Below the pieces are notes generated by a model. The model saw only the letters and a list, made by a program, of their open reading frames with translations, was not told the DNA's origin and made no database searches. From IMG/VR virus record IMGVR_UViG_3300021400_000932: 64,000 bases of DNA. One strand, written 5' to 3'. Below, piece by piece: positions 175 through 27,027 of the stretch (position 1 is its first letter; every line of letters begins with the position of its first letter). This DNA is from a virus (Duplodnaviria; Heunggongvirae; Uroviricota; Caudoviricetes). The position numbers were made by a program, and so were the translations under genes.

Positions 175-251
175 TGGCTCCGAGGGTGGGACTCGAACCC
201 ACGACCCCATGATTAACAGTCATGTGCTACTACCAACTGAGCTACCTCGGA
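175..251 (-). tRNA. tRNA-Asn (anticodon GTT)
   Basis: Reverse complement folds as a cloverleaf: acceptor TCCGAGG/CCTCGGA, T-arm GTGGGTTCGAGTCCCAC, anticodon loop CTGTTAA, 3' CCA encoded. Confidence 0.85.
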
Positions 252-506
252 ATAAAAGTTGCAGGGAATAGGCTAACATCACCCTACTATGTGGACTCTA
301 ACCCTCTTATCTCCACTTCGGACAAACACCATTCCATATGCCCTTATGTTCTGGTACTATTCCTTGTCATCGGTTTATAGTTTCCCTCCTCAACGGGCGA
401 GGTGTCCGGCGCTCTCTGCAGGTCGTTGCTCACCTTTTGGGAACTGCACTTCCCTCACTACTTCGTGCAGAAAGTAGATGGCAAAGTACACTTATTTTGT
501 GTACTG

Positions 507-582
507 TGGCGATTCCAGCGGGGTTCGAACCCGCGACCTCTAGCGTGACAGGCTAGCGTTCTAACCAACTGAACTATGGAAC
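507..582 (-). tRNA. tRNA-Asp (anticodon GTC)
   Basis: Reverse complement GGTTCCATAGTTCAGTTGGTTAGAACG...CTGTCAC...GGTTCGAACCCCGC...GCCA; anticodon loop CTGTCAC; closely resembles bacterial tRNA-Asp. Confidence 0.85.
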
Positions 583-588
583 CGTATG

Positions 589-674
589 TGGTGCCGGTGG
601 TGGGACTTGAACCCACATGCTTATTCAGCAACAGATTTTGAGTCTGCCGTGTCTGCCAATTCCACCACACCGAC
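589..674 (-). tRNA. tRNA-Leu (anticodon CAA), type II with long variable arm
   Basis: Reverse complement has acceptor GTCGGTG/CACCGGC, anticodon stem-loop GCAGA-CTCAAAA-TCTGT, long variable arm, T-arm GTGGGTTCAAGTCCCAC, CCA encoded. Confidence 0.8.
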
Positions 675-679
675 ACATA

Positions 680-1381
680 TTATGAATATCTCTTATCCTT
701 GTCTTCTGCACTCCGGAAGATGAACTTCCGGTAATCCTCATAGTCTGAGAACTGAATGTACTCACCGGTGCGAACATCAAAGCAATTTGAATTTCTGCAA
801 AATTCATAGCTGTTTGCACTGACTACGATATAAATATCGCAAGATTCCCTCTGTTTGAAATCCTCAATAATGACATCGAACAAATCAGTTTTGACACTAT
901 CAATATTATCTACAGACAATCCACTATCGAGGGCATCCAGCAGCACCCAAATCTCCTTGCGGTTATTCGCATACTTACGAACAAATGCACCGATTTTCCT
1001 TGCTGTGTTGCCGAGATTCGTTACAATCTGTTCACCCTCAGAACTCTGTATCAATGTCGCAAGAAGACTCCAATCATCATGCCATCCAGCGGAATTCTTT
1101 GCTCTGTCGCCACCCTCACGGAGATTGTCGTAATGAAGAACAGCAACATCGGAATCTTGTTTTAAGATATCCTCTATGAGATTGAGAAATGTTGTCTTTC
1201 CAGAACCATTACACCCAACCAATACTGTGATTCCGCTTTTAATTACTACATCAGATTTCATATAAATCTTTCCGGAATCACCGCATTCATAAGGATTAGT
1301 AGGTATTTTGAATTTGTGCATATGTTCGCCTCCAGTTATGATGCCTAGGGTGTCGGGTATATGTGTGGTATAACCCGACAT
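680..1381 (-). CDS. P-loop NTPase, ABC/AAA_21-like minimal ATPase (likely start at internal Met MHKFKI)
   Basis: Walker A VLVGCNGSGKTTF preceded by an SMC/RecF-like N-terminal strand; Walker B IWVLLDALDSGL; no ABC signature motif; sits between tRNA genes. Confidence 0.6.
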   Translation of the reverse strand: MSGYTTHIPDTLGIITGGEHMHKFKIPTNPYECGDSGKIYMKSDVVIKSGITVLVGCNGSGKTTFLNLIEDILKQDSDVAVLHYDNLREGGDRAKNSAGWHDDWSLLATLIQSSEGEQIVTNLGNTARKIGAFVRKYANNRKEIWVLLDALDSGLSVDNIDSVKTDLFDVIIEDFKQRESCDIYIVVSANSYEFCRNSNCFDVRTGEYIQFSDYEDYRKFIFRSAEDKDKRYS

Positions 1382-1496
1382 TCTATGAATTCAATAACCA
1401 CACCTGAGTATTCATAGATGATGGTTTCAAAAAATTAAGGAGATTCATGAAAACCATTATTGAGTGTAGTGAAAAAAGTGTAAAAACCTACACCCA

Positions 1497-1593
1497 TGGT
1501 GGCGAGGGCAGGATTCGAACCTACGTTACCTGAGCTACATATCGTACTACTGTACTAAGCAATCAGTGTCTTAGACCACTTGACCAACCCGCC
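1497..1593 (-). tRNA. tRNA-like gene (type II-like, 97 nt) with non-canonical anticodon arm; identity undetermined, possibly pseudo-tRNA
   Basis: Reverse complement GGCGGGTTGGTCAAGTGG...GTAGGTTCGAATCCTGC CCTCGCC A CCA has good acceptor, D and T arms and an encoded CCA. No 5-bp anticodon stem with a 7-nt loop and U33/R37 can be drawn in the CTGATTGCTTAGTACAG region. Confidence 0.45.
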
Positions 1594-1710
1594 ATTTATA
1601 AATCAATAGGCTGTTCCTCTAACCCCATTTAACTACAGCACTTTGGACGCCTCGAAGTGTCAAACTTCTTCCATTATGCGATTTTCGTAGCACCCATCAA
1701 TTTTAATTTG

Positions 1711-2016
1711 TTATAAGAAATTCCTGCTCATAAAAAATTTCATAAAGCGTTCTTTAACCCTTCGGAACTTGTAAGAAATTCCCTTTGTAGAAATTACTTC
1801 GATTCCCATATTCCCATCCGGAAGTTTTGTGTTTCGAAATTCAAGAGAATCAATAGCATATCCGTATTCTGGTTCATCTATTGAGGTTTCTCCGGTTATA
1901 TGGAATCTCGATGAACCATCCTCATTAACCTTCGTGAATTCCAGCTCAATGAAGTATTCCTCATAGGAGTTATAAAGCCAGATGATGTCGCCTTGTTTTA
2001 ATTCTGATACTTTCAT
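1711..2016 (-). CDS. hypothetical protein
   Basis: 101-aa ORF in co-directional minus-strand array; no recognisable motif. Confidence 0.45.
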   Translation of the reverse strand: MKVSELKQGDIIWLYNSYEEYFIELEFTKVNEDGSSRFHITGETSIDEPEYGYAIDSLEFRNTKLPDGNMGIEVISTKGISYKFRRVKERFMKFFMSRNFL

Positions 2017-2025
2017 ATTGACCCC

Positions 2026-2241
2026 TTAATTATATTCAGTATCACAAAATTTGCAGATATGTCCATGTAATGGAGCTCCACAATTCTTGCAATTTGTGGG
2101 ATGATGTGGATGTTCATTTTCTATTGTGATTGGAACATCAGCTATTTGAGAATACCCATCTGCATTCCGGAGATATAAACCATCATTGCAACAACAGTAC
2201 AGTTGCGCCGATACAAACGACCAATCATTCATAACTTCCAC
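2026..2241 (-). CDS. zinc-ribbon protein (paralog of C-terminus of 15813..16151)
   Basis: C-terminal CKNCGAPLHGHICKFCDTEYN is nearly identical to CKNCGAPLHSNRCEFCDTEYD in ORF 15813..16151. Confidence 0.6.
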   Translation of the reverse strand: MEVMNDWSFVSAQLYCCCNDGLYLRNADGYSQIADVPITIENEHPHHPTNCKNCGAPLHGHICKFCDTEYN

Positions 2242-2252
2242 CTCACATCAAA

Positions 2253-2528
2253 TCAGGACATATGGTCTTCAACAAAAGATACCAAATCTGCCACTGTTCT
2301 GCATTCGCAAAATTCTGACAAAGCGGGTTCATTAATAGAGAATTTGAACATATCCTCTATATCAATAGCCAAGTCCACAGCATCAAGGGAATCAAGACCG
2401 AGGTCCCCACGAAGTTCGGTATCTAAAATTATCTCAGATTTATCTGTGTCTGATTGCTGAGATACCATGTTTCGTACAATTTCAAATACTTCTGACATTT
2501 GAACCTCCATGGCATATAACGATTTCAT
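2253..2528 (-). CDS. acpP: acyl carrier protein homolog (probable start at internal Met MSEVFEI)
   Basis: Phosphopantetheine-attachment motif LGLDSLDAVDL (DSL serine) in a small acidic ~80-aa protein, matching the bacterial ACP LGADSLD motif. Confidence 0.7.
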   Translation of the reverse strand: MKSLYAMEVQMSEVFEIVRNMVSQQSDTDKSEIILDTELRGDLGLDSLDAVDLAIDIEDMFKFSINEPALSEFCECRTVADLVSFVEDHMS

Positions 2529-2538
2529 TATACATATT

Positions 2539-2615
2539 TGGAGCAGATAAGGGGACTCGAACCCCCACTACCAACTTGGAAGGATGGTGTGCTAACCGTT
2601 GAACACTATATCTGC
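2539..2615 (-). tRNA. tRNA-Gly (anticodon TCC)
   Basis: Reverse complement GCAGATA...CCTTCCAAG anticodon loop (as in bacterial tRNA-Gly UCC), T-loop GGTTCGAGTCC, discriminator U, CCA encoded. Confidence 0.8.
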
Positions 2616-2634
2616 ATATTTGTAACTAAAAAAC

Positions 2635-3039
2635 TTAGTAGTTAAAAATTTGTCCATCTTCCGGTAGACCGGCAAATTCTGGACCCAGTTCATATGGGAA
2701 ACCATCGACATAAATGATATCGGCATCTTCATCATATGGATAAGTCTTGTTCACAGCATCACGAATAGAAGAATTGCTCTTGGCAATTTCCCGCGACCGC
2801 TTTTCAGTTGCGAAACTACGTGCAGCATTGACTAGCGAAAACATATCCGCATTAGAATAATATTTGCATTCGCAGTCCTTTTCATGATACGGAATCTTCT
2901 TCACACCAGAAAATACTAAAGTATTGATTCCACCTAATATATTCTGAATACTTGTTTCATCTGCATCGAATGCATGAAGAATATTATCAGAAAGTGCTAC
3001 GAAGATTGTATCACGCATCAACTTCATCCCTTTCATCAT
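2635..3039 (-). CDS. hypothetical protein
   Basis: 134-aa ORF between tRNA-Gly and tRNA-Leu; no clear motif. Confidence 0.45.
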   Translation of the reverse strand: MMKGMKLMRDTIFVALSDNILHAFDADETSIQNILGGINTLVFSGVKKIPYHEKDCECKYYSNADMFSLVNAARSFATEKRSREIAKSNSSIRDAVNKTYPYDEDADIIYVDGFPYELGPEFAGLPEDGQIFNY

Positions 3040-3189
3040 ATTCCTTCCGAACTAAATCATATCTATCTGCGGCTGACAACCTGTACCAATCATCTTTAAT
3101 ATCCAGAAAAGAAAAAACGGTAAGATTGTGTTCGGACAACAAATCGCAAAATTGTTCTTTATCCATATTTAACCTCAGAAATAAAAGTG

Positions 3190-3270
3190 TGGTGCGCCTG
3201 ACAGGACTCGAACCTGCACCCTTGCGGACTAGAGCCTAAATCTAGCGTGTATGCTTTCCACCACAGGCGC
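3190..3270 (-). tRNA. tRNA-Leu (anticodon TAG), type II
   Basis: Acceptor GCGCCTG/CAGGCGC, anticodon stem-loop CTAGA-TTTAGGC-TCTAG, variable arm, T-arm GCAGGTTCGAGTCCTGT, CCA encoded; D-loop lacks the GG dinucleotide. Confidence 0.7.
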
Positions 3271-3279
3271 ACATCTTAT

Positions 3280-3477
3280 TTATCCAATATCTCTATCATA
3301 AGTAGTTTTATCACAGTTCGGACATTTCATATAAGTGAAAAATTCTACGCACGGCGGAGAAATGTGGAGCTCAGCATCACTTCTATTCGCATACCACTCA
3401 CACCCACAATGTTTGCAAGTAAAATGAAACTCACCGGTCTTAGACTTGGTTACATCCCCCGATTTGACGATATTCAT
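3280..3477 (-). CDS. small zinc-ribbon protein
   Basis: CKHCGC...C...CPNC; two CxxC pairs in 65 aa. Confidence 0.5.
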   Translation of the reverse strand: MNIVKSGDVTKSKTGEFHFTCKHCGCEWYANRSDAELHISPPCVEFFTYMKCPNCDKTTYDRDIG

Positions 3478-3980
3478 AACAACTAACCTCGCTGTTCACC
3501 TAAGCATAAAGTTGTGCCGGATATTCCCCGCTCTATTCTCCGACTCCACCCCAATACACGCATTTGCCCATATCTGTGTCTTTACTGTCGTTTTTGTCGG
3601 ACAGGGTGGTATGTTTGTCAACTCAATACTTAGGATAGTCCCAAATTGCGTAGGCTTTATTGGCTTTGCATATTGGGCAGTATTTCGTACCATTTCACAT
3701 AGCACTTATCAGAGAGATTACTGTAGTTCCTCTCCATAAGATTTCAGCGCAGCACCTGCCCCTCCAGATGCCGAGTTTTATCCGTAACAAAACCAGACCT
3801 ATGTATTGAATTGACATTCTCTATCCACCACGCCGTACGCACATCATATAGCCCTCGGCGTAGCAGTCTGTGACCCCTCAAAGAGACGTGAGGTGCTTTC
3901 TTTGGCGGATTAGCTCGCCCCCGCCGGTCAGACATCGCCCTTTCATGCTTTGCCATCCTATAGTAAACCGACTTAGGTTT

Positions 3981-4056
3981 TGGTGTGCCGAGAGGGATTC
4001 GAACCCACGACCTGCGGATTAAAAGTCCGCTACTCTTCCGGCTGAGTTATCGGCAC
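3981..4056 (-). tRNA. tRNA-Lys (anticodon TTT)
   Basis: Acceptor GTGCCGA/TCGGCAC, anticodon stem-loop GCGGA-CTTTTAA-TCCGC, T-loop GGTTCGAATCC, CCA encoded. Confidence 0.85.
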
Positions 4057-4313
4057 ATAGATGTGAGGTTGGTAGTCATCCTTTTACTGCTGAGGGGGAC
4101 CCCACAACTCCCGTTTTCGAATGGGTCCGCACGGAGATTCCAAAAGGTGCGGATTTCGAAGTAGCTACTCTCCAGCTACAAGAAGAACGGTTTTACCAAA
4201 GGACTCACAACGCGATGTGAAAATCCTACCGACCGATAAGGGGATGATTTCTCGTTTACCATCCTAACGCCATCTTTTCGGCGACTAACCCAGGGCAGGT
4301 ATATGTTTCCCTT

Positions 4314-4400
4314 TGGTGCAAGTGAAGGGAATTGAACCCTTAATCCCAACAGGGCATGGGATTTTAAGTCCCACTTGTATGCCAGTTCCAACACACTTGC
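4314..4400 (-). tRNA. tRNA-Leu (anticodon TAA), type II
   Basis: Acceptor GCAAGTG/CACTTGC, anticodon TGGGA-CTTAAAA-TCCCA, variable arm CCC-TGTT-GGG, T-arm AAGGGTTCAATTCCCTT, CCA encoded. Confidence 0.85.
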
Positions 4401-5780: not shown

Positions 5781-6407
5781 TTATGCAGAAATTTCGTCTG
5801 CGGTAAGCGGAATTACGCGCGAAATGACGAATGGCACAGAAACTGTCAGGATGGCCCCTCCGGCCTGGTCCCCTGGACCTCTGTTCAAAGCACCAATCCA
5901 AGTACCAGGACAACGGAGACCATGACGCAGATTACCTTGTCCATCATAGCGAAGGAAGTAAACCTGCTTCATATACTCTGTAGGTAATCCCATTCTTTCG
6001 GTTGCAGGGTCATACACCTGACGTCTCCACTCTTCGAGAGCTCCGAGAACATTAGGCTCACAGAAGCAGTTAAGAGTCCAAGTGACATCATCGAAGTTGA
6101 CCTTAGACGGGAATTTGATTAGACCATTACCGTAGTGTACTGTGATGATATCTTCACTCTCTGAGATATCACCGATTTCTGCGGTAGACAGGGTTAATAG
6201 GTCGGAATTTTCTGTCGGGCTGGAACCATCCATGTTGTAGATTCTTACCTCAAAGTTGTTAGTGGTCAGAGGTACATAGTTATCTACACCCAACATATGG
6301 TTTGTACGTTTGTGTTTAGCGGAATTTCGCAAGGATTCCGTTGTTGTAGCTCTCCGGAAACTACCTTTTACCTTTCGATAAAAGACCAGACTATTTGTTA
6401 ATCTCAT
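5781..6407 (-). CDS. hypothetical protein (first gene of a long minus-strand operon)
   Basis: 208-aa ORF starting at the divergent intergenic region 6408-6840. Confidence 0.5.
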   Translation of the reverse strand: MRLTNSLVFYRKVKGSFRRATTTESLRNSAKHKRTNHMLGVDNYVPLTTNNFEVRIYNMDGSSPTENSDLLTLSTAEIGDISESEDIITVHYGNGLIKFPSKVNFDDVTWTLNCFCEPNVLGALEEWRRQVYDPATERMGLPTEYMKQVYFLRYDGQGNLRHGLRCPGTWIGALNRGPGDQAGGAILTVSVPFVISRVIPLTADEISA

Positions 6408-6757
6408 TATATTTTGAGATTGTGGATTTTTCGCTCACCCATTGGCTTGGCAGCTAACTCCCCCTCAAGGGGATAGTCGTTGAACGTATTTCATATTGGA
6501 TATATTACCCAACTTAGAAATTTCGCTGCTAAACGTCCCATTGTTACATCTCTTACTTTTTAATCTATCACGATTACTATTTCTAGTTTCGTTGTAGCAA
6601 AGAGCTCTTAGGAACTTCAAAGCAATTAACACACAGCACATATGTATCACTACATATGTGGGGCATCATCCACCCATGTACAGCGGAGAAAACATATATT
6701 TTATCTCACCTTTCTATAATATTTTTGAGTTTTTGATTGACTCATTGATATTATAGG

Positions 6758-7024: not shown

Positions 7025-8530
7025 ATGGAAAGATATGGATGTGTTGCCCCTGGAAATAACATAGCAGCTAGAAAGAAAGCGAAAGCTACTATGCAAGAAC
7101 GATTTGGTGTTGACTATGCTATGCAATCGGAAACTGTCAGAAAGAAATCTGTTGCCACCAATATAAAAAAGTATGGTGTCGAAAACCCCCAACAAAATGA
7201 AACAATCAAACAAAAAACCGCAGAAACAAATCAGGAACGGTATGGGGGCACCGGTTTTCAATCAGAAGAGTTGCTAAATAAGTATAAAGATACAATGATT
7301 GATATATATGGTGTTACTTCCCCCATTCAAAACCAACAGATTCGACAGGATATTATGAATACTATGCAAGACAGACATGGCGCTTCATGGTTCTCTCAGA
7401 GTGAAGAATATAAAGATAAATGTCATACTACTTCATTATCTAAATATGGTGCGGAACACTGGATGCAAACAGATGAGTGTAAGCAGAAATGCAAAGATAC
7501 TTGGCTGCGGAATTATGGCGTTGATAATCCATCGAAATCTCCGCTAGTAATCGCCAAGATAAAGCAGACATTTATTGATAAGTATGGGACAGATGGACTA
7601 TTGAATGTAGCTGAAATCCGAGAGAAGATACAGAAGACTTGCATTGAAAGATATGGTGTTCCCTATGGGGTATTGACACCACAAGCACGAAAACACAATG
7701 GTGCTATATCGAAGCAAAACAAACAAGTAATGAAATTATTAGATGATGCCGGTTTGAGCTATCAGTCAGAATTCAATCTTGAAAATAAATCATTTGACAT
7801 CAAAATTTTATATTCCAATATACTTATTGAGATTGACCCATCATACACACATTCAATAGAACTAACTCACTGGAATACCTCTGTTTCAGATACATACCAT
7901 ATAGAAAAGACTATGTTGGCAAACAAACATGGATATCAATGTTACCATATCTTCGATTGGGACGATAGGAAAAAATTTGTCAAATCTCTAACTAAGAAAA
8001 AAGATATAGAAACAGACCAATATTATATATCTGAAGTAGATGAATTGACTGCAACTGAATTTTATTATAAATATTCCATCTATATGCCGGATACCAAGTA
8101 TGCAATCCATATTGGAATATTCAACAAGCGGAATAATGCACTACTGCAAGTATCGTCATTCAGATTCATAGATATTTCTAACTGTCGGTGGCTGCTTTGT
8201 GCTAACAGCATCAAATTCCAAATTAATGTTATAGATGGACTGCATAATATCATAGACCACTTTGTTAAATACTATGACCCTGCTGAAATTGTCGGATTAT
8301 GTGATATAGCAAAATCAAATGGGATGATGTTTGAATCAATAGGGTTCAAAGAACTTTCAGAAGAACCACCACGTTTGATTTGGAGTCGATATCGGTCAGC
8401 AATTTCTAATGACAATGTAAAAAGTCAAACCAAATTGAATGATGAACAAATATACTCTATGATGATAAACAATAAATATCTGCCTGTATATGACTGTGGA
8501 TACAAAGTATATTCATTGAAACTCCGGTAA
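7025..8530 (+). CDS. repeat-containing putative site-specific/homing endonuclease: tandem ~30-aa K..(K/R)YGV.NP.Q repeats plus C-terminal PD-(D/E)xK-like (DUF559/Vsr-type) domain; N-terminal Zn-finger module probably starts at 6841
   Basis: At least eight repeats (QERFGVDYAMQSE, KKYGVENPQQNE, QERYGGTGFQSEE, IDIYGVTSP, SKYGAEHWMQ, RNYGVDNPSKSP, DKYGTDGLLN, ERYGVPYGV). The C-terminal FDIKILYSNILIEIDPSYTH resembles a DUF559 nuclease core. The in-frame upstream sequence 6842-7024 encodes CKFCGKEF...CPVCGKEY and has no start codon. Confidence 0.75.
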   Translation: MERYGCVAPGNNIAARKKAKATMQERFGVDYAMQSETVRKKSVATNIKKYGVENPQQNETIKQKTAETNQERYGGTGFQSEELLNKYKDTMIDIYGVTSPIQNQQIRQDIMNTMQDRHGASWFSQSEEYKDKCHTTSLSKYGAEHWMQTDECKQKCKDTWLRNYGVDNPSKSPLVIAKIKQTFIDKYGTDGLLNVAEIREKIQKTCIERYGVPYGVLTPQARKHNGAISKQNKQVMKLLDDAGLSYQSEFNLENKSFDIKILYSNILIEIDPSYTHSIELTHWNTSVSDTYHIEKTMLANKHGYQCYHIFDWDDRKKFVKSLTKKKDIETDQYYISEVDELTATEFYYKYSIYMPDTKYAIHIGIFNKRNNALLQVSSFRFIDISNCRWLLCANSIKFQINVIDGLHNIIDHFVKYYDPAEIVGLCDIAKSNGMMFESIGFKELSEEPPRLIWSRYRSAISNDNVKSQTKLNDEQIYSMMINNKYLPVYDCGYKVYSLKLR

Positions 8531-10844: not shown

Positions 10845-11055
10845 ACCTTATTTCTTCATCGTCGGCATGACAGCAAGGACAGAAGAAATAAAGACCCTCT
10901 TTGACTACAAGAACAGGTTTCGGTATTTGTTTCTCTATAGCAGCAACAGCTATCTTTTTCGCCTCAGCAATGGCAAAGCTATCACCAAGATACTCCACCT
11001 TTAATTCCTCAATCGCTTGTGGTAGTTCCATCCGATGTATCCTCCTCAAATTCAT
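10753..11055 (-). CDS. zinc-ribbon protein, CG(Q/R)(R/K)LDW family
   Basis: CPCCHADDEE...CTKCGQRLDWEK. Confidence 0.5.
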   Translation of the reverse strand: MNLRRIHRMELPQAIEELKVEYLGDSFAIAEAKKIAVAAIEKQIPKPVLVVKEGLYFFCPCCHADDEEIRYDYCVPYDYCTKCGQRLDWEKREYIDEWPH

Positions 11056-11257
11056 CTGTCACATGGTTCGTATTTTCGCACATAGGACATTTACATTCCT
11101 TGACTGTGCCATTGTAAATTCGCATAAAACCATCAGACTTTATGGTATACTCTCCGTATTCGGCTATATAAACACACCCGCAAGCACAACAAGTAAATTC
11201 AGTAGGAACTAATTTCGGCTTTTTAAGTATTTTCATAGTGCGTCCTCCGTCATACAA
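11009..11257 (-). CDS. small Cys-rich protein
   Basis: CCACGC...C..CPMC. Confidence 0.45.
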   Translation of the reverse strand: MYDGGRTMKILKKPKLVPTEFTCCACGCVYIAEYGEYTIKSDGFMRIYNGTVKECKCPMCENTNHVTDEFEEDTSDGTTTSD

Positions 11258-16522: not shown

Positions 16523-16849
16523 TCATTTTTGTAATCTCGGTGTTATGCAAATATTATCGCCGGAGCCGCTGTTTTCACTAACAACAATATACTCAACACC
16601 GTACTCATTATCAGTAAGAACAGAAACCATGTAATATTTAGGATACTCCGGTTCAGACATCGTAAATGATGAATTTGTTGTAGCATCCACCTTACTTACT
16701 GAACAAGCACCAAGGAAGAATGCTAATAAAAACACGGCGACCAACAAGCAGGCGATTAAGACACGGATAAATTTAGGTTTCATTGTACTCCTCCGATAGC
16801 AATTCTGGATTATCATATATGTTCCCAAGAAATTCATAGATGCGACCAC
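16523..16849 (-). CDS. predicted lipoprotein (start likely internal Met MKPKF)
   Basis: Signal peptide with lipobox: MKPKFIRVLIACLLVAVFLLAFFLGAC. Confidence 0.5.
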   Translation of the reverse strand: MVASMNFLGTYMIIQNCYRRSTMKPKFIRVLIACLLVAVFLLAFFLGACSVSKVDATTNSSFTMSEPEYPKYYMVSVLTDNEYGVEYIVVSENSGSGDNICITPRLQK

Positions 16850-17216
16850 TTCCGATAGAACTAAAAGTCACAATATTATTCACATACTCAATTCGCCATT
16901 GGCAATTCTCTGCATTGTAACATATCTTCCCAATAGGCTGATAATAGGAAGTAACTGTTTCCCTTACAATGTCACCACCGAACAACTTTCTACCACTCTT
17001 GTCAACAAGACCGGTGAATGCGGATAGAGTATCTTTGTCGATAAACTCATAATCCCACAGTTCGCTTACACACATCTCACCACCGGACTTGACAATACAG
17101 TGATAAAATTCTTCACTGACAGCATCTTGGACATAGATGTAATGACCCTCAATCCACTCATTATTGTCAAGTCGCTTTGCGCGAAAAAGGATTCCACTCA
17201 TTTTGTATTCCACCAC
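16773..17216 (-). CDS. YopX-like protein
   Basis: N-terminal ILFRAKRLDNNEWIEGHYIY matches the YopX-family N-terminal signature. Confidence 0.5.
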   Translation of the reverse strand: MVEYKMSGILFRAKRLDNNEWIEGHYIYVQDAVSEEFYHCIVKSGGEMCVSELWDYEFIDKDTLSAFTGLVDKSGRKLFGGDIVRETVTSYYQPIGKICYNAENCQWRIEYVNNIVTFSSIGSGRIYEFLGNIYDNPELLSEEYNET

Positions 17217-17505: not shown

Positions 17506-17958
17506 TCAGAAAAGCATCTCTTCAAGCCTGCGTGCTTTTTCCTCAGCTTGTTTCAGCCAGGTTTCATATCTATCCAGCCAATAACCTCGTTCCATAGAGA
17601 GCATTTCCAGCAACTCTTCATCGCTTGCATCGGACAAAGGCAAATGTCCGCTACAACGTGCAGACTCAGTAATTGTATCTGAATCAAACCAAACCCAACC
17701 CTCACAAACACCGACCAGGGTAAAGCCGTACTTTCCGAACAAATTTGGATATTTGGTATCCCAACCCAAGGCTGGGCTGCTCTGATTAACTGCATCAAGC
17801 AGTTCTTGTCTTGTCATATATTTCATAGTATTACTCTTCCAACAGACTCCCAATCGAAGCTGCGGTATTCTGAGCAAGTTTGACATCAACTTCACTCGGA
17901 ACCTGAATCCTATCGTCTGCAAGCAGAACAACCGAACCATAAACATCGCCATTTGCAA
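17506..17958 (-). CDS. hypothetical protein
   Basis: 150-aa ORF; its N-terminus overlaps the next gene, so the true start is probably internal. Confidence 0.4.
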   Translation of the reverse strand: MQMAMFMVRLFCLQTIGFRFRVKLMSNLLRIPQLRLGVCWKSNTMKYMTRQELLDAVNQSSPALGWDTKYPNLFGKYGFTLVGVCEGWVWFDSDTITESARCSGHLPLSDASDEELLEMLSMERGYWLDRYETWLKQAEEKARRLEEMLF

Positions 17959-18367
17959 TAATCGGAATCACCAAAGATGCCGGTCGGCAATTAGCATCGA
18001 ATGTCGGACGAACGACATTATCATGACTGTATGTGTATTGTCTTCTGCTTTCGATGACAGTTTCGAGTTCATTTGAGATAGTCTGTTCAATGTATTGTCG
18101 CTTACTTACTCCGGAAACAGCTACTACTGAGTCTCTGTCAGTAATCAAAACAGAGTGCGAACTTAGCGATTCAAGTACATTTGCAAACTTGCCGACAAAA
18201 GATGATAGAGAACTGATTGGATGATACTTCTTGTAAATAATAGCACCATCCTCAACATAGATTTCCAGAGGGTCACCCTCTCTAATCCTTAAAGAACGGC
18301 GTATCTCCTTCGGAATTATAACTCTCCCGAGGTCATCAATTCTACGAACAATTCCGGTTGCTTTCAT
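17831..18367 (-). CDS. spoVT: SpoVT-like transcriptional regulator (AbrB-type N-terminal domain + GAF-like C-terminal domain)
   Basis: 178 aa. N-terminal MKATGIVRRIDDLGRVIIPKEIRRSLRIREGDPLEIYVE closely resembles Bacillus SpoVT (recalled from memory, not database-checked). Length and two-domain layout also match. Confidence 0.75.
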   Translation of the reverse strand: MKATGIVRRIDDLGRVIIPKEIRRSLRIREGDPLEIYVEDGAIIYKKYHPISSLSSFVGKFANVLESLSSHSVLITDRDSVVAVSGVSKRQYIEQTISNELETVIESRRQYTYSHDNVVRPTFDANCRPASLVIPIIANGDVYGSVVLLADDRIQVPSEVDVKLAQNTAASIGSLLEE

Positions 18368-18379
18368 GATATATACTCC

Positions 18380-18709
18380 TTATTCAAAAGTTTCTGTCAA
18401 AGATAGAACATAAGTCAGCAGATTTTCGGCATCAATCAGCTTACACACTATGCCCATATCCTCTGCTGTTGTAACACTATGTCCATACCAAATTTCTGCT
18501 TTTTCTACATAGCGCTTTGCCTTAGCTAAGGAATCTCGGAAATCCTCAATGGTCTTAACTTCATCACATTTCTTGATTAAAATGCCATCCTCAGCAGCAC
18601 AAAATTCAAATTCATCATTTGTCCTAAGACCTAGTGACTTTCGGATATCTTCTGGAATCTGGATTCTTCCTGTAGCATCAATATGCCTTGTTACTGGTGC
18701 ATCTTTCAC
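18380..18709 (-). CDS. AbrB/MazE-family (SpoVT-AbrB swapped-hairpin) DNA-binding protein
   Basis: N-terminal TRHIDATGRIQIPEDIRKSLGLRTNDEFEF. Confidence 0.6.
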   Translation of the reverse strand: MKDAPVTRHIDATGRIQIPEDIRKSLGLRTNDEFEFCAAEDGILIKKCDEVKTIEDFRDSLAKAKRYVEKAEIWYGHSVTTAEDMGIVCKLIDAENLLTYVLSLTETFE

Positions 18710-19056
18710 ATTACTACCACCTTTCCATTAGCATACTGCGTTGCACACATCCCCACACATTGAGGTGTGCTATAGTGCTTATCCCCATATCTCTTTGTAC
18801 ACACATACCGTGTATCGAACCAACCGGTTCTGCTATCCGAGATGACAGAACTTCCGATAACCAAATCCCCCGCATCGAATAACCTACAGTTACCAAAGTT
18901 ACCCTGAGTAGCAACGATGTGTGCAAACATCTCTTCCTTTGTGTTGAATTCCTTTGCTTCACTCATGGATTCGGCTAACCCACCTCTGTGCGGTCTATAG
19001 ATATACATTAAGACACCTACCTCACAGACAACCACCAATGGATTGTAGATAGGCAA
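18706..19056 (-). CDS. hypothetical protein
   Basis: 116-aa ORF. Confidence 0.4.
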   Translation of the reverse strand: MPIYNPLVVVCEVGVLMYIYRPHRGGLAESMSEAKEFNTKEEMFAHIVATQGNFGNCRLFDAGDLVIGSSVISDSRTGWFDTRYVCTKRYGDKHYSTPQCVGMCATQYANGKVVVM

Positions 19057-20376: not shown

Positions 20377-20754
20377 TTAATCTTGTATCCCTCTGGATTC
20401 TTCGTCTAACACCTTTAGAATAAACTTTAATGCATCCATTATAGTGCTAAGTTCGCTATCGCCGCCAAGAACTACTTCGAATCCGTCCTCTCCAACATCC
20501 GTACAGGAATCAATAAGTTGTACTTCAATATCTGTACTTGCGAGGTCATGAATACGAAAATACGTGCGTCCTCCATGTCCCGAATCTCCGCCCATATAAC
20601 CGGTGGTACCAGCCTCTACTTCGAGCATATTGGCACCAAATATTACACGACTATAAGTTGTAATTGCTTTTCCATCCGGCAATGTGCGTACATCTTTTTT
20701 AATTTCATACATTTTAATTCCCCTCCAGTTTATTTGTATTTTCCCAACCATCAA
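20377..20754 (-). CDS. hypothetical protein
   Basis: 125-aa ORF. Confidence 0.4.
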   Translation of the reverse strand: MMVGKIQINWRGIKMYEIKKDVRTLPDGKAITTYSRVIFGANMLEVEAGTTGYMGGDSGHGGRTYFRIHDLASTDIEVQLIDSCTDVGEDGFEVVLGGDSELSTIMDALKFILKVLDEESRGIQD

Positions 20755-21115
20755 AGATATTGCCTATAACTTCGAGGTACTGCGAATTCCATAAAGCATC
20801 TGAATCAGGACAAGGATGTTTGTCCTCTAAGGCATATAAATCCCAGCCTGCAAAATACTGTGAGCTGAGCCACACAACGGAGCAAGCTCTGCCATGCTGA
20901 GTACGAACAACATCACCTTCAAAAATAGGAGTTCCAAACTTATCATTTCGACCGGTATATTCACACACAGATTCCGGAATGATTTCATACGGAGAATCAA
21001 ATTCTTGTGTTTCTGTATCAATGTGGGTAATCTGCTGTTCTTTGGTAAACACACCGCAAGCAGGAAGTCCTTGTATCCACTGCTTATTGTCTTTCCTCTT
21101 TGCCCTGATTGACAC
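20714..21115 (-). CDS. YopX-like protein (second paralog), GTG start abutting the IS right end
   Basis: MSIRAKRKDNKQWIQG parallels the other YopX-like N-terminus; the start codon GTG at 21113-21115 lies ~5 nt from the IS terminal hairpin. Confidence 0.5.
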   Translation of the reverse strand: MSIRAKRKDNKQWIQGLPACGVFTKEQQITHIDTETQEFDSPYEIIPESVCEYTGRNDKFGTPIFEGDVVRTQHGRACSVVWLSSQYFAGWDLYALEDKHPCPDSDALWNSQYLEVIGNIFDGWENTNKLEGN

Positions 21116-21116
21116 T

Positions 21117-21300
21117 CCACACGACTAAAGTCGTGGGATTCTTGCTTCAACGACTACGGCGAGCGTTTTACTCAAAGAGTTCAGCTCGACTTACACAATC
21201 TCCACAAGCTAGATTAAAGAGTTCCCGTGTGCCCCACGGTGCTCTGTGTATTAATAGAGGTTAAGCTATCATAGCCAACCCTTTAGTTAATATATTCATA
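21117..21300 (-). ncRNA. putative TnpB omega/right-end guide RNA (3' end of tnpB plus right end)
   Basis: Structured ~145-nt right-end segment downstream of the tnpB stop, ending in the terminal hairpin; by analogy to characterised IS605 TnpB systems. Confidence 0.4.
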
Positions 21301-22355
21301 GCGGCATTGACATCTCTGTCGTGATACTCTCCGCACTCGGGGCAAGTCCACTTTCGTATAGCTAAATTCTTAACTAATGGATTTTTATATCCGCACTTGT
21401 TACACAACTGACTGCTCGGATAGGTAGTAGGCACTCTCTGTACTGTCCTGCCGTACCAGGCAGCTTTGTATTCAAGCATTGTAAAAAACTTAGACCACGA
21501 AGCGGAGGATATACTTTTAGCCAGCTTGTGATTTTTGAGCATATTTTTGATTTTCAAGTCTTCTACACAGATTACTTGGTTTTCGTTAATCAGTGTAGTT
21601 GAAAGCTTTTGCAAAAAATCATTTCGCTGATTAGATACCTTCTCGTGGACTTTAGCTACTCTTAGTCGTTGCTTATCTCTGTTATGGGAGTCAACCTTCT
21701 TTCTGGAAAGTTTTCTTTGTTCTCTGCGTAATTTTCTTTGTGTTCGTTCTAACCTTTTGTGATTAGGTACAGAATTACCGTTACTGTCGGAATAGAAATC
21801 TTTTATGCCGACATCTATACCAATAACGGAATCTATTCTGTCTAAAGGTTGAGGTTCAAAGTCAATGTTAAGAACAGCAAAATACTTTCCTGTAGGTGTT
21901 CTCTCTACAGTAACATTATTAATATGACCTATATTCATTGACTGTTTGACTTTAATATAGCCAAGCTTTGGTAACTTTAGTTTATTGCCGTCAATGCGAA
22001 TATTATTACCTTGATTAAGAGTTCTGTAACTCTGGCGATGGTTATGTTTACTTTTGAAACAAGGATATCTGCCTAACTTCTTAAAGAAGTTTTGATACGC
22101 TCGGTCTAAATCCCTGAGAGATTGTTGCAGAGCAATACTATCAACTTCCTTAAGAAAGGAAAAGTCATCTTGCATTTTCATAGAGGTGAGCATAGCAGAA
22201 GTAGCGGTATAGTTAGCTTTATTACCTAACTTGTATTGTTCAATTCTGTATGCTAAACCTTTGTTGTAAATGAATCGAACACAACCAAGAGTGCGGTTTA
22301 TTATGTTTTGCTGTTCCCGATTGGGATAGATACGAAACTTTACACCTTTGTTCAT
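21261..22355 (-). CDS. tnpB: TnpB (IS605 OrfB-family RNA-guided nuclease)
   Basis: 364 aa; RuvC-like motifs ([10 protein letters not shown]) and C-terminal zinc finger CNKCG...CPECG. Confidence 0.85.
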
Positions 22356-22364
22356 TACAAACTC

Positions 22365-22781
22365 CTATGGTCTTGTTTTCTGGGTATTTACATACCACTG
22401 TATTGTTTCAGAGCTTACATTACCGGCAGTAGAAACAAAGTAACTTCTAGTCCAAAGACTAGGCATAGCACTGAGTTCGTTAAATTCTTTGCGAAGTATC
22501 ACTGAGGATGCACCTTTAATGTATTGCATGATTTGTGGAATTGATTGTGTAGGTAAAGCACTTACAAAAATATGAACGTGGTCTACATGACATTCTAAAG
22601 CAAGAATTTCAATCTTTTGTTTTTTGCACACCGCTAAGGTTAATTCCTTGAACCGTTCTTCAACTCCTTTAATATTGAAGATTTTTCTACGGTAGCGAGG
22701 GCAAAATACAAAATGATAGTTAATCAATGATACTGTTGTTTTTGTGTGTTTATATATATTCTTCATATATATATTATACAA
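22365..22781 (-). CDS. tnpA: TnpA (IS200-like Y1 HuH transposase)
   Basis: INYHFVFCPRYRRKIF and HVDHVHIFVSALP (HuH) motifs; ~130 aa. Confidence 0.85.
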   Translation of the reverse strand: MYNIYMKNIYKHTKTTVSLINYHFVFCPRYRRKIFNIKGVEERFKELTLAVCKKQKIEILALECHVDHVHIFVSALPTQSIPQIMQYIKGASSVILRKEFNELSAMPSLWTRSYFVSTAGNVSSETIQWYVNTQKTRP

Positions 22782-25434: not shown

Positions 25435-27027
25435 TTATGTATTTGAAATGTCGGATACCTGTGTTGGGATATCTGTAGTAGGAACGTCATTCACATGAAC
25501 CGCTACATTATCACCGCCAAGTGCCTTAGCACCGAACAGACCGACAAGCAGGGACTTGAGGTCAAATCCCATAGATTCGCTCAGACCATCATTAACCTGA
25601 GTCAGTCCGTTGATAATCTGTCCGGTAAACTGACCTGCATCACCACCAAAAATCTTGATGGAATCAACAGAACTGAATCCACCTGCGATAGCCGAAGCAA
25701 TTTCCGGCAGCTTGTCAAAGTAGGCAACTGCCGCATCGAGAACCATCTGTTTCTGTGCAGCTTCGCCATACAGAGCCATAGCCTCAGCCTTTTCTTTCAA
25801 ACCTTCAGCCTCAGCAATCAGCTTAGCCTTTGCGGCCTCAGCCTCTGCATTACCTTTGGCGCGGATAGCATCAGCTTCTGCTAAACCAGCAGCACGAATA
25901 GCCTCTGCATCCTGTTCCTTTGCGAAACGTTCAGCCTCCGCAGATGCCTTTTTAGCCGATGCACTCTGCTGTGCCTCATACATCTGAGCATCTGCATCCT
26001 GCTGGCGCTTGTACTTCTCAGCTTCTGCATTACGCTGTTCTGTGTAAAGTTCAGCATCAGCTTCCTGCTGTGCAGCAAACTTATCAGCTTCTGCTTTCTT
26101 CTTGATTTCGGCTTCAAGTCTACGCTCAGTAATCTTTACCTCACGTTCTTCAAGTTCAATCTGCTTTTCCTGACGAGCAAGGTTCGCATCAGCTTCTGCA
26201 ATTTCCTTGGACTTGCGCTGATTCTCAGCCTCAATGCCCTTGGCCGCCTCTGCCTTTGCAATCTTGATGTCCTGCTGTTCCTTGAGTTCAGCCTGCTTGA
26301 TAGCAAGCGCATTCTCTTTAATAGCAATTTCAGTCTGGGCCGCAATCTCAGCATCATTAGCTTGCTTCTGTGCATCCGCCTGAGCAATAGCTACCTCTGC
26401 CCTTGCGCGTGCTGCAGCAATAGAGGCATCCTTTTTAATCTGTTCAGTATTCTCAATACCGAGATTGTCAATAACCCCATTCTGGTCAGAGAAGTTCTGA
26501 ATATTAAAAGTAGTGAGCTTAAGACCCATATCTCGAAGATTCGGACTGACATTCTCAGTAATCTTCTCAGCAAGTACTTTCTTATCTCCGCGAATTAAAT
26601 CAGTCAGCGGAATCTGAGAAATGATTTCACGAATGTTACCCTCTAAAATCGGGGTAATTTCAACCCGAATTTCTTCTGTAGTACGACCTAGGAATTTAGA
26701 AGCCGCAATCTTCAGAACCTCTGGGTCTTGGTCAATAGACATATTGGCTACAGCATCGACACGAATATTGATTGCATCCTGTGTCGGAATCTCACTCTTA
26801 GAAACAAAGTCAACCTGAATGTTTTCGAGTGACATAAAGTCCACTCTCTGAAAAAATGGGATTACAAATTTCGCCCTACCGATATAAGTCTTTGCACCTC
26901 TCGGACCAGTAACAACCATAGCTCGGTTGGGTGGGCATTTTCGATAGCACACCTTAAAGATAAGGACCAACAGAAAAAGAACTACAATGCCTGCGATAAC
27001 TGGGGTAAGAATTTGCCATGGAACCAT
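25435..27027 (-). CDS. flotillin-like SPFH/band-7 protein (FloT/YqiK-like)
   Basis: N-terminal transmembrane helix, SPFH core (NRAMVVTGPRGAKTYIGRAKFVIPFFQRVDFMSLENIQVDF), long Ala/Glu-rich coiled coil (AEAE repeats), C-terminal domain; 530 aa. Confidence 0.8.
   Translation of the reverse strand: MVPWQILTPVIAGIVVLFLLVLIFKVCYRKCPPNRAMVVTGPRGAKTYIGRAKFVIPFFQRVDFMSLENIQVDFVSKSEIPTQDAINIRVDAVANMSIDQDPEVLKIAASKFLGRTTEEIRVEITPILEGNIREIISQIPLTDLIRGDKKVLAEKITENVSPNLRDMGLKLTTFNIQNFSDQNGVIDNLGIENTEQIKKDASIAAARARAEVAIAQADAQKQANDAEIAAQTEIAIKENALAIKQAELKEQQDIKIAKAEAAKGIEAENQRKSKEIAEADANLARQEKQIELEEREVKITERRLEAEIKKKAEADKFAAQQEADAELYTEQRNAEAEKYKRQQDADAQMYEAQQSASAKKASAEAERFAKEQDAEAIRAAGLAEADAIRAKGNAEAEAAKAKLIAEAEGLKEKAEAMALYGEAAQKQMVLDAAVAYFDKLPEIASAIAGGFSSVDSIKIFGGDAGQFTGQIINGLTQVNDGLSESMGFDLKSLLVGLFGAKALGGDNVAVHVNDVPTTDIPTQVSDISNT

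Follow-up and report, generated by a model that had tools for sequence, protein, structure and literature searches.

A SpoVT-like gene and an AbrB-like neighbor in a phage operon

The 64,000-nucleotide stretch of viral DNA analyzed here (hereafter the window; IMG/VR record IMGVR_UViG_3300021400_000932, Caudoviricetes) carries, between positions 17831 and 18709 of its minus strand, two adjacent genes that encode a 178-residue protein resembling the sporulation regulator SpoVT and a 109-residue protein with an AbrB-type N-terminal domain. The original prediction had been that these are a SpoVT homolog and a stand-alone AbrB-like regulator through which a phage might manipulate the sporulation of its host. 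In the list of open reading frames (ORFs), the SpoVT-like gene occupies positions 17831-18367 (minus strand), with an ATG start codon at 18367 and a TAA stop codon at 17833-17831. Sequence identity and a set of invariant arginines define its AbrB-type, swapped-hairpin DNA-binding domain at the N-terminus (residues 1-52; 18212-18367, minus strand), and the PF15714 match and an AlphaFold2 (AF2) model define the C-terminal SpoVT_C/GAF-like domain (residues 54-178; 17834-18208, minus strand).

The 109-residue gene (18380-18709, minus strand, from the ORF list and the sequence) lies immediately upstream and starts with GTG at 18709. Its product is predicted to combine an AbrB-type N-domain, delimited by sequence comparison (residues 1-48; 18566-18709, minus strand), with a lineage-restricted C-terminal helical hairpin seen in the AF2 model (helices 54-77 and 82-105; 18395-18550, minus strand). 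The GTG codon, which is served by a ribosome-binding site AGGTGG at 18717-18722, overlaps the stop codon of the preceding 116-residue ORF by 4 nt (GTGA). The sequence leaves 12 nt between the 109-residue gene and the SpoVT-like gene, too few to accommodate a promoter of its own for the latter, and the ribosome-binding site of the latter (AAGGAG, 18376-18381, minus strand, read from the sequence 8 nt 5' of the ATG) shares bases with the stop codon of the former. Both junctions imply that the two ORFs lie in the interior of an operon of closely spaced small genes, within which the 109-residue gene appears to be translationally linked to the SpoVT-like gene.

Domains, fold and identity of the 178-residue protein

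Pfam places a MazE/AbrB domain (PF04014, E 3e-12) at residues 7-47 of the 178-residue protein and SpoVT_C (PF15714, E 1.5e-29, 103.1 bits against a cutoff of 27.5) at residues 54-174; matches to the Pfam GAF families themselves are weak and sub-threshold. The N-domain also scores 47.5 bits with the AbrB-family model TIGR01439, and the spore_V_T model TIGR02851 aligns to the protein from end to end at 187.8 bits. The best match in the PDB is full-length Bacillus subtilis SpoVT (2w1t, E 1e-42). Foldseek aligns the AF2 model, which has a predicted local distance difference test score (pLDDT) of 83, to 2w1t with a template modeling (TM) score of 0.69, and its C-domain to 2w1r with a TMt of 0.84 and a root-mean-square deviation of 2.5 Å; the next structural neighbors of the C-domain are the GAF domains of CodY. 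The proposal of a full SpoVT layout, with an AbrB-type N-terminus and a GAF-like C-terminus, is thus borne out by PF04014, PF15714, 2w1t and the model. Furthermore, PF15714, TIGR02851, 2w1t and the Foldseek results take the protein well beyond generic MazE/AbrB antitoxins that have no GAF domain.

Residues 1-52 of B. subtilis SpoVT are identical to the phage N-domain at 44 of 52 positions (85%), in agreement with the description of this segment as almost identical to Bacillus SpoVT, and the C-domains are 36% identical. Comparison with a chromosomal SpoVT from Ruminococcus gives 81% identity for the N-domain and 46% for the C-domain; for scale, the B. subtilis and Ruminococcus proteins are 88% and 40% identical to each other in these two domains. 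Arg-8, Arg-9, Arg-15, Arg-23 and Arg-24 of the N-domain are invariant in phage and host homologs alike. When residue conservation in the GAF-like domain is examined, the core positions are also found to be invariant across phage and host proteins, with Gly-86, Arg-108, Pro-135, Ile-136, Gly-140, Gly-144, Val-146 and Lys-163 all retained. On this comparative evidence we regard it as very probable that the 178-residue protein is a functional DNA-binding regulator of the SpoVT family.

Ancestry and selection

Database matches to the 178-residue protein fall into two blocks, one of 58-92% identity, all on phage-like contigs, and one of approximately 52-56% identity that is chromosomal. The chromosomal block is very large and consists of 180-residue proteins in an ordinary host context, in metagenome-assembled genomes (MAGs) of Ruminococcus and Oscillospiraceae. 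Among 185,579 species genomes (GTDB), no protein matches at 60% identity or more, the best being 53%, which argues against both a recent capture of the gene and a prophage copy of it residing in a reference genome. The best chromosomal donor candidates are 53-55% identical, in a range of 45-55% across gut Clostridia; these closest cellular relatives are the chromosomal SpoVTs of gut Clostridia (Ruminococcus, Oscillospiraceae and Lachnospiraceae MAGs; P0032, P0076 and L005 in our set, 53-55% overall), which differ from the phage copies in being 180 residues long and in lying near ftsZ and radical SAM genes. No close relative was found in IMG/VR, where the best match is 47% identical; it is ENA and Logan assemblies that supply the close relatives.

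In a neighbor-joining tree, the phage SpoVT copies form a single, long-branched clade (87-98 of 100 bootstraps). This clade joins the gut Clostridia, and Bacilli and Clostridium sensu stricto fall outside the grouping (95 of 100 bootstraps). The same tree places the phage clade as the exclusive sister of Oscillospirales, and we do not claim this relationship because it is recovered in only 36 of 100 bootstraps. Scores against TIGR02851, for which the equivalog cutoff is 235.9 bits, are 287-305 bits for Bacilli and Clostridium, 223-230 bits for chromosomal proteins of gut Clostridia, and 156-193 bits for the phage clade. All members of the phage clade are therefore below the cutoff, of which the chromosomal copies from Ruminococcus and Lachnospiraceae also fall slightly short, and the phage copies appear to be the most derived members of the SpoVT family among those tested.

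Ratios of nonsynonymous to synonymous substitution rates (dN/dS) within the phage clade are 0.05-0.3 for both the N- and the C-domain, with values of 0.16-0.30 for the C-domain. These low ratios, together with the invariant arginines and GAF positions, indicate that the gene has been kept with both of its protein domains in working order. As a separate observation, many proteins of 146-157 residues on IMG/VR contigs of 100-190 kb (L090-L135) have an N-domain close to that of SpoVT and a partial C-domain match. Their identity is 36-39% over about 150 residues, and they may be shortened SpoVT-like proteins of other big phages.

The 109-residue neighbor

Support for an AbrB-type N-domain in the 109-residue protein is provided by TIGR01439 (33.2 bits against a cutoff of 28.3), and PF04014 scores 23.5 bits, slightly below its gathering score of 24.7. 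The N-domain is 35% identical to that of the adjoining SpoVT-like protein and 34% identical to AbrB. BLASTP alignments to AbrB cover only residues 1-47, alignment to the SpoVT family by hhalign is restricted to residues 1-61 (probability 97.6%), and the top Foldseek match is 1yfb. Arg-8 and Arg-23 are kept, Arg-24 is replaced by lysine, and position 15 is arginine, cysteine or tryptophan across the family, when compared with the DNA-contacting arginines of AbrB (Arg-8, Arg-15, Arg-23 and Arg-24). Where the N-domain is present, purifying selection acts on it, with a dN/dS of 0.155 (comparison with the relative L168).

There is no AbrB-type C-terminal multimerization domain. Residues 54-105 are instead modeled by AF2 as a helical hairpin (helices 54-77 and 82-105, pLDDT 79-91), for which a structure search gave no specific fold match in the PDB and a search of 1.8 billion representative proteins gave five hits, all from its own lineage or spurious. 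Conservation within the family is also highest in the hairpin, and because it is around the linker and this hairpin that invariant residues are concentrated, the region looks like the functional core. The description of the neighbor as a stand-alone AbrB-type protein consequently holds for the N-terminal half, as identified by TIGR01439, and fails for residues 54-105; with a lineage-restricted hairpin as its C-terminal part, the protein appears to have the AbrB fold without being a plain AbrB. We also considered the 109-residue protein as an internally deleted SpoVT paralog in which the hairpin is a remnant of the GAF domain. BLASTP does return a collinear second high-scoring segment pair (residues 75-106 against residues 143-177 of the SpoVT-like protein), but its E value is only 0.38, profile-profile comparison of the two C-terminal parts gives a probability of 0.2%, and hhalign homology is limited to residues 1-61, and we therefore reject this idea.

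All 21 close homologs of the 109-residue protein are on phage-like contigs. In the window, on the contigs that encode the identical protein, and in L168 and L169, the full form of 106-109 residues comes before the SpoVT-like gene. Elsewhere the N-domain is missing or truncated (L002, L167, P0136-140 and P0142). L167 has an 82-residue form lacking the first β-hairpin, P0142 is a stand-alone hairpin of 66 residues, and in L002 (5443-5985) and P0143 the hairpin alone survives as a fusion to a homolog of the upstream 116-residue gene (18706-19056, minus strand, in the window). This last arrangement is reminiscent of a Rosetta-stone link, suggesting that the hairpin works with the product of the upstream gene. 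The partner is absent altogether from L001 and from the P0025 subclade (L165).

The carrier phage

The window itself is from a phage. It encodes a tail sheath, a portal, a large terminase, a family-A DNA polymerase, a UvsX-like recombinase, a primase, a DnaB-type helicase and clamp-loader-like ATPases, together with YopX and Lar genes and eight tRNAs; almost all of its genes are on one strand, and its GC content is 39%. The exact 178-residue protein is present on 22 metagenome contigs, the longest of which, from the metagenomes ERZ913616 and ERZ28612966, are 160-193 kb, and diverged homologs share the same neighborhood on contigs of 128-191 kb, with DUF7694, HAD_SAK_2 and YopX genes upstream and Lar downstream. 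The carrier is a large (about 130-190 kb), uncultured lineage of gut myoviruses. Its portal is at most approximately 23% identical to that of any cultured phage, and a megablast search of 20 kb against cultured phages returned a single match of 50 nt, to Enterocloster phages. This match (11109-11158 in the window; 96-98% identity to Enterocloster bolteae phages CB457P1 and CB473P3) lies within a small, cysteine-rich ORF at about 11030-11236 (minus strand) and in an unannotated stretch of those phage records.

Several other features of the window are outside the gene pair. A small predicted lipoprotein with a signal peptide ending in LGAC is encoded just 3' of the pair in the operon, and two YopX paralogs lie on either side of the pair's region (these genes are among the minus-strand ORFs at 16523-16849, 16773-17216 and 20714-21115); a homolog of the lipoprotein directly follows the SpoVT-like gene in L001. 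About 3 kb upstream of the pair, within the accessory region of the phage, is an inserted IS200/IS605 element (21261-22781, minus strand) comprising a tnpA Y1 transposase gene (22365-22781) and tnpB (21261-22355). Relatives of this TnpB with 80-97% identity are found only on metagenome contigs, and TnpB is also encoded near the SpoVT-like gene in L165. An unusual cargo for a phage is a 530-residue protein with SPFH/Band 7 and flotillin domains (25435-27027, minus strand); bacterial flotillins organize membrane microdomains and influence signaling, including that of sporulation kinases in Bacillus. A group I catalytic intron (6366-6681, minus strand; Rfam RF00028, 64 bits) adjoins, on the opposite strand, a 501-residue homing/HNH endonuclease ORF (7025-8530, plus strand). 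The eight tRNA genes (175-4400, minus strand) lie among small ORFs that include an acyl-carrier-protein-like PP-binding ORF (2253-2528). One of them, tRNA-Lys(ctt) at 1497-1593, may carry an insertion given its length of 97 nt and low Rfam score of 36.9 bits.

Possible roles during infection

The reading that we favor is that the phage protein occupies the targets of the host's SpoVT/AbrB family and so skews late-growth or sporulation gene expression; we put this at about an even chance. According to this model, the SpoVT gene would have been captured long ago from a Clostridia host by a lineage of large gut myoviruses and kept since. Phage SpoVT would use its swapped-hairpin N-domain to dimerize and would contact AbrB/SpoVT-type operators with the arginines that the host protein also employs; a second dimer interface and, possibly, ligand control would come from the GAF-like C-domain. 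During infection it would occupy sites of the host SpoVT/AbrB family, and stationary-phase and sporulation gene expression would be redirected in the phage's favor, independently of the signal that controls the host protein or in response to a different one. The 109-residue protein would be an accessory that probably multimerizes or docks on a partner through its hairpin and modulates the same circuit. Occupation of host sites is the likely role because the DNA-binding domain is 81-85% identical to that of the host proteins and the sensor domain has drifted. Moreover, SpoVT homologs in general have a nearly invariant N-domain and a variable GAF domain (PMC5061766), and the phage protein fits this pattern, suggesting that it would bind the same kind of sites. 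We infer the DNA targets, the oligomeric state and any effect on sporulation, and a sporulation hijack by phage SpoVT is plausible. The host had also been placed among spore-forming Firmicutes; this is a reasonable inference given that the closest cellular relatives of the protein, as a best-match search confirms, are SpoVTs of endospore-forming Clostridia, even though such evidence is indirect.

Several points weigh against the favored reading. The TIGR02851 scores of the phage copies are lower than that of any host copy tested, perhaps implying that their function has shifted. The host is only presumed to be a spore-former, and a phage replicating in vegetative cells would be expressing SpoVT, which in hosts acts in the forespore with σG, out of context. 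Because SpoVT has no defined consensus site (PMC5061766), neither genome, that of the host or that of the phage, lends itself to target prediction. A pattern test, albeit a weak one, found no σG or σF consensus on the coding strand upstream of the pair, and counts of this consensus across the window are at the level of shuffled sequence; a scan for σ70-like promoters was likewise at chance (44 found, 44.0 expected). Pfam and PHROG scans of most ORFs of at least 75 residues in the 64-kb window revealed no other sporulation regulators (sigma factors, Spo0A or SpoIIID); some ORFs were scanned as concatemers joined by glycine-serine linkers, and matches to "Serglycin" are artefacts of these linkers. 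In addition, the partner gene is dispensable in related phages, where it is lost, truncated or fused, and the pair is therefore not an obligate unit.

A less probable, though possible, explanation is that the 178-residue protein is a regulator co-opted for the phage's own transcription, with the host-derived DNA-binding module repressing phage genes or setting their timing and the GAF-like domain reading a host metabolite so that phage development tracks host physiology. AbrB-type N-domains are common among phage regulators, many of the matches in Paenibacillus and Bacillus phages being annotated as transcriptional regulators or repressors, and the operon that contains the gene is made up of small, closely spaced phage genes. 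The reduced TIGR02851 scores would also fit this explanation, as would a GAF domain that has diverged from that of the host and yet remains under purifying selection, and whose nearest structural relatives after SpoVT are the CodY sensor domains. The GAF domain of CodY reads branched-chain amino acids. On the other hand, a DNA-binding domain that is still 81-85% host-like is what would be expected if host or host-like sites are targeted, whereas a regulator acting only on the phage would be free to drift, as its 109-residue neighbor has done. No repeated operator-like motif was found, although no search aimed at one was made. Nor is a ligand known for any SpoVT (PMC5061766, PMC11237016).

An anti-defense function is unlikely, in which one protein or both would mimic MazE/VapB-type antitoxins and counteract a toxin or an abortive-infection effector of the host; this role would fall chiefly to the 109-residue protein with its hairpin binding a toxin. 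PF04014 is the MazE family, and PHROG families 4681 and 36746, annotated as "antitoxin from a toxin-antitoxin system", match the N-domain of each protein; these labels, however, span only the domain that the two share. The conservation of the hairpin and its survival without the DNA-binding domain form a pattern that fits a protein-binding module. No toxin gene is found beside the pair, given that the ORFs at 17506-17814 and 18706-19056 and the further neighbors have no Pfam or PADLOC match, and neither the 178-residue nor the 109-residue protein matches PADLOC. A full SpoVT_C GAF domain, as in the 178-residue protein, is also not part of an antitoxin architecture. The role is unlikely for the 178-residue protein and only weakly possible for its neighbor.

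Equally improbable is a more elaborate scheme in which the two genes constitute a phage-made switch acting on the host AbrB/SpoVT network. Here the diverged GAF domain would sense a metabolite that marks commitment to sporulation, and the 109-residue protein would be a poison subunit that pairs with SpoVT/AbrB proteins of the host (or the phage) in mixed swapped-hairpin dimers and thereby disables or retargets them. The idea of a poison subunit arises from the frequent presence of cysteine or tryptophan at the DNA-contact position 15 and from the fact that the conserved part of the protein is the novel hairpin. If correct, the phage could either keep spores from maturing or be carried inside them. 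Finally, phages do pick up host DNA, and an IS200/IS605 element is 3 kb away, but the notion that the genes are passive hitch-hikers on a recently captured host fragment, without a role for the phage, is very improbable given dN/dS values of 0.05-0.3, the lack of a host donor closer than 53-55% identity, and a gene position that is conserved in a phage clade even though its copies diverge by as much as 40% at the protein level and are saturated at synonymous sites.

Relation to known systems and significance

B. subtilis SpoVT is a dimer of dimers that activates some σG-dependent forespore genes and represses others, with neither a ligand nor a consensus site having been identified (PMC5061766, PMC11237016). 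The phage protein shares its two-domain architecture (2W1T/2W1R), its length of 178 residues and all of the DNA-contacting arginines. It differs in being encoded by a phage gene away from chromosomal housekeeping genes, in a C-domain that is only 36% identical, and in a one-residue deletion in the β3-β4 loop (YVE-DG). Moreover, SpoVT is expressed in the forespore from a σG (σF) promoter, whereas the phage copy belongs to a phage operon. The CodY GAF sensor domain, which ranks behind only SpoVT among structural matches of the C-domain (Foldseek E about 7e-5), is only 14-18% identical, and the DNA-binding domain of CodY is a C-terminal winged helix-turn-helix. As for the 109-residue protein, its swapped-hairpin N-domain resembles those of AbrB and Abh (1YFB, 2K1N, 2FY9; 34% identity to AbrB residues 1-47), from which it is set apart by the missing AbrB C-domain, the lack of conservation of Arg-15, and the loss of the N-domain in sister phages.

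Homologs of spoVT (K04769) and abrB (K06284) are among the sporulation genes enriched in human-gut phages of spore-formers (Schwartz et al. 2023, Table 1, PMC10294663), and phage spoVT and abrB have been proposed, without validation, to manipulate dormancy (PMC10294663; restated in PMC12713726). AbrB hits are also prevalent in the Gut Phage Database (Bernard et al. 2021, bioRxiv 10.1101/2021.07.15.452460). The idea of sporulation regulators carried by phages is therefore not new, and our finding opens no new category. Like the entries in those catalogs, the gene described here is a homolog of a host sporulation regulator on a genuine viral genome. Those entries, however, are listed by KEGG orthology or hidden Markov model match only, while here the complete domains, the lineage, the selection and a variable partner are defined; the phage SpoVT is also complete, unlike the truncated phage Spo0A homologs described by the same authors. 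Full-length matches are present in about 10 unannotated "Bacteriophage sp." records from human feces, which are phage by record label only. What is new is a complete copy that includes the GAF-like domain, its assignment to a specific lineage of large phages in which it is old and under selection, and the modular, lineage-restricted neighbor.

How well many gut Clostridia persist and spread from person to person is governed by spore formation, which is also thought to shelter them from phage. With its complete and selected SpoVT, including the sensor domain, this lineage of phages offers a concrete, clonable candidate for testing whether the late stages of spore development, and not only its initiation (Spo0A, sigma factors), are subject to interference by gut phages. 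Phage SpoVT could also help in probing the ligand and DNA targets of SpoVT.

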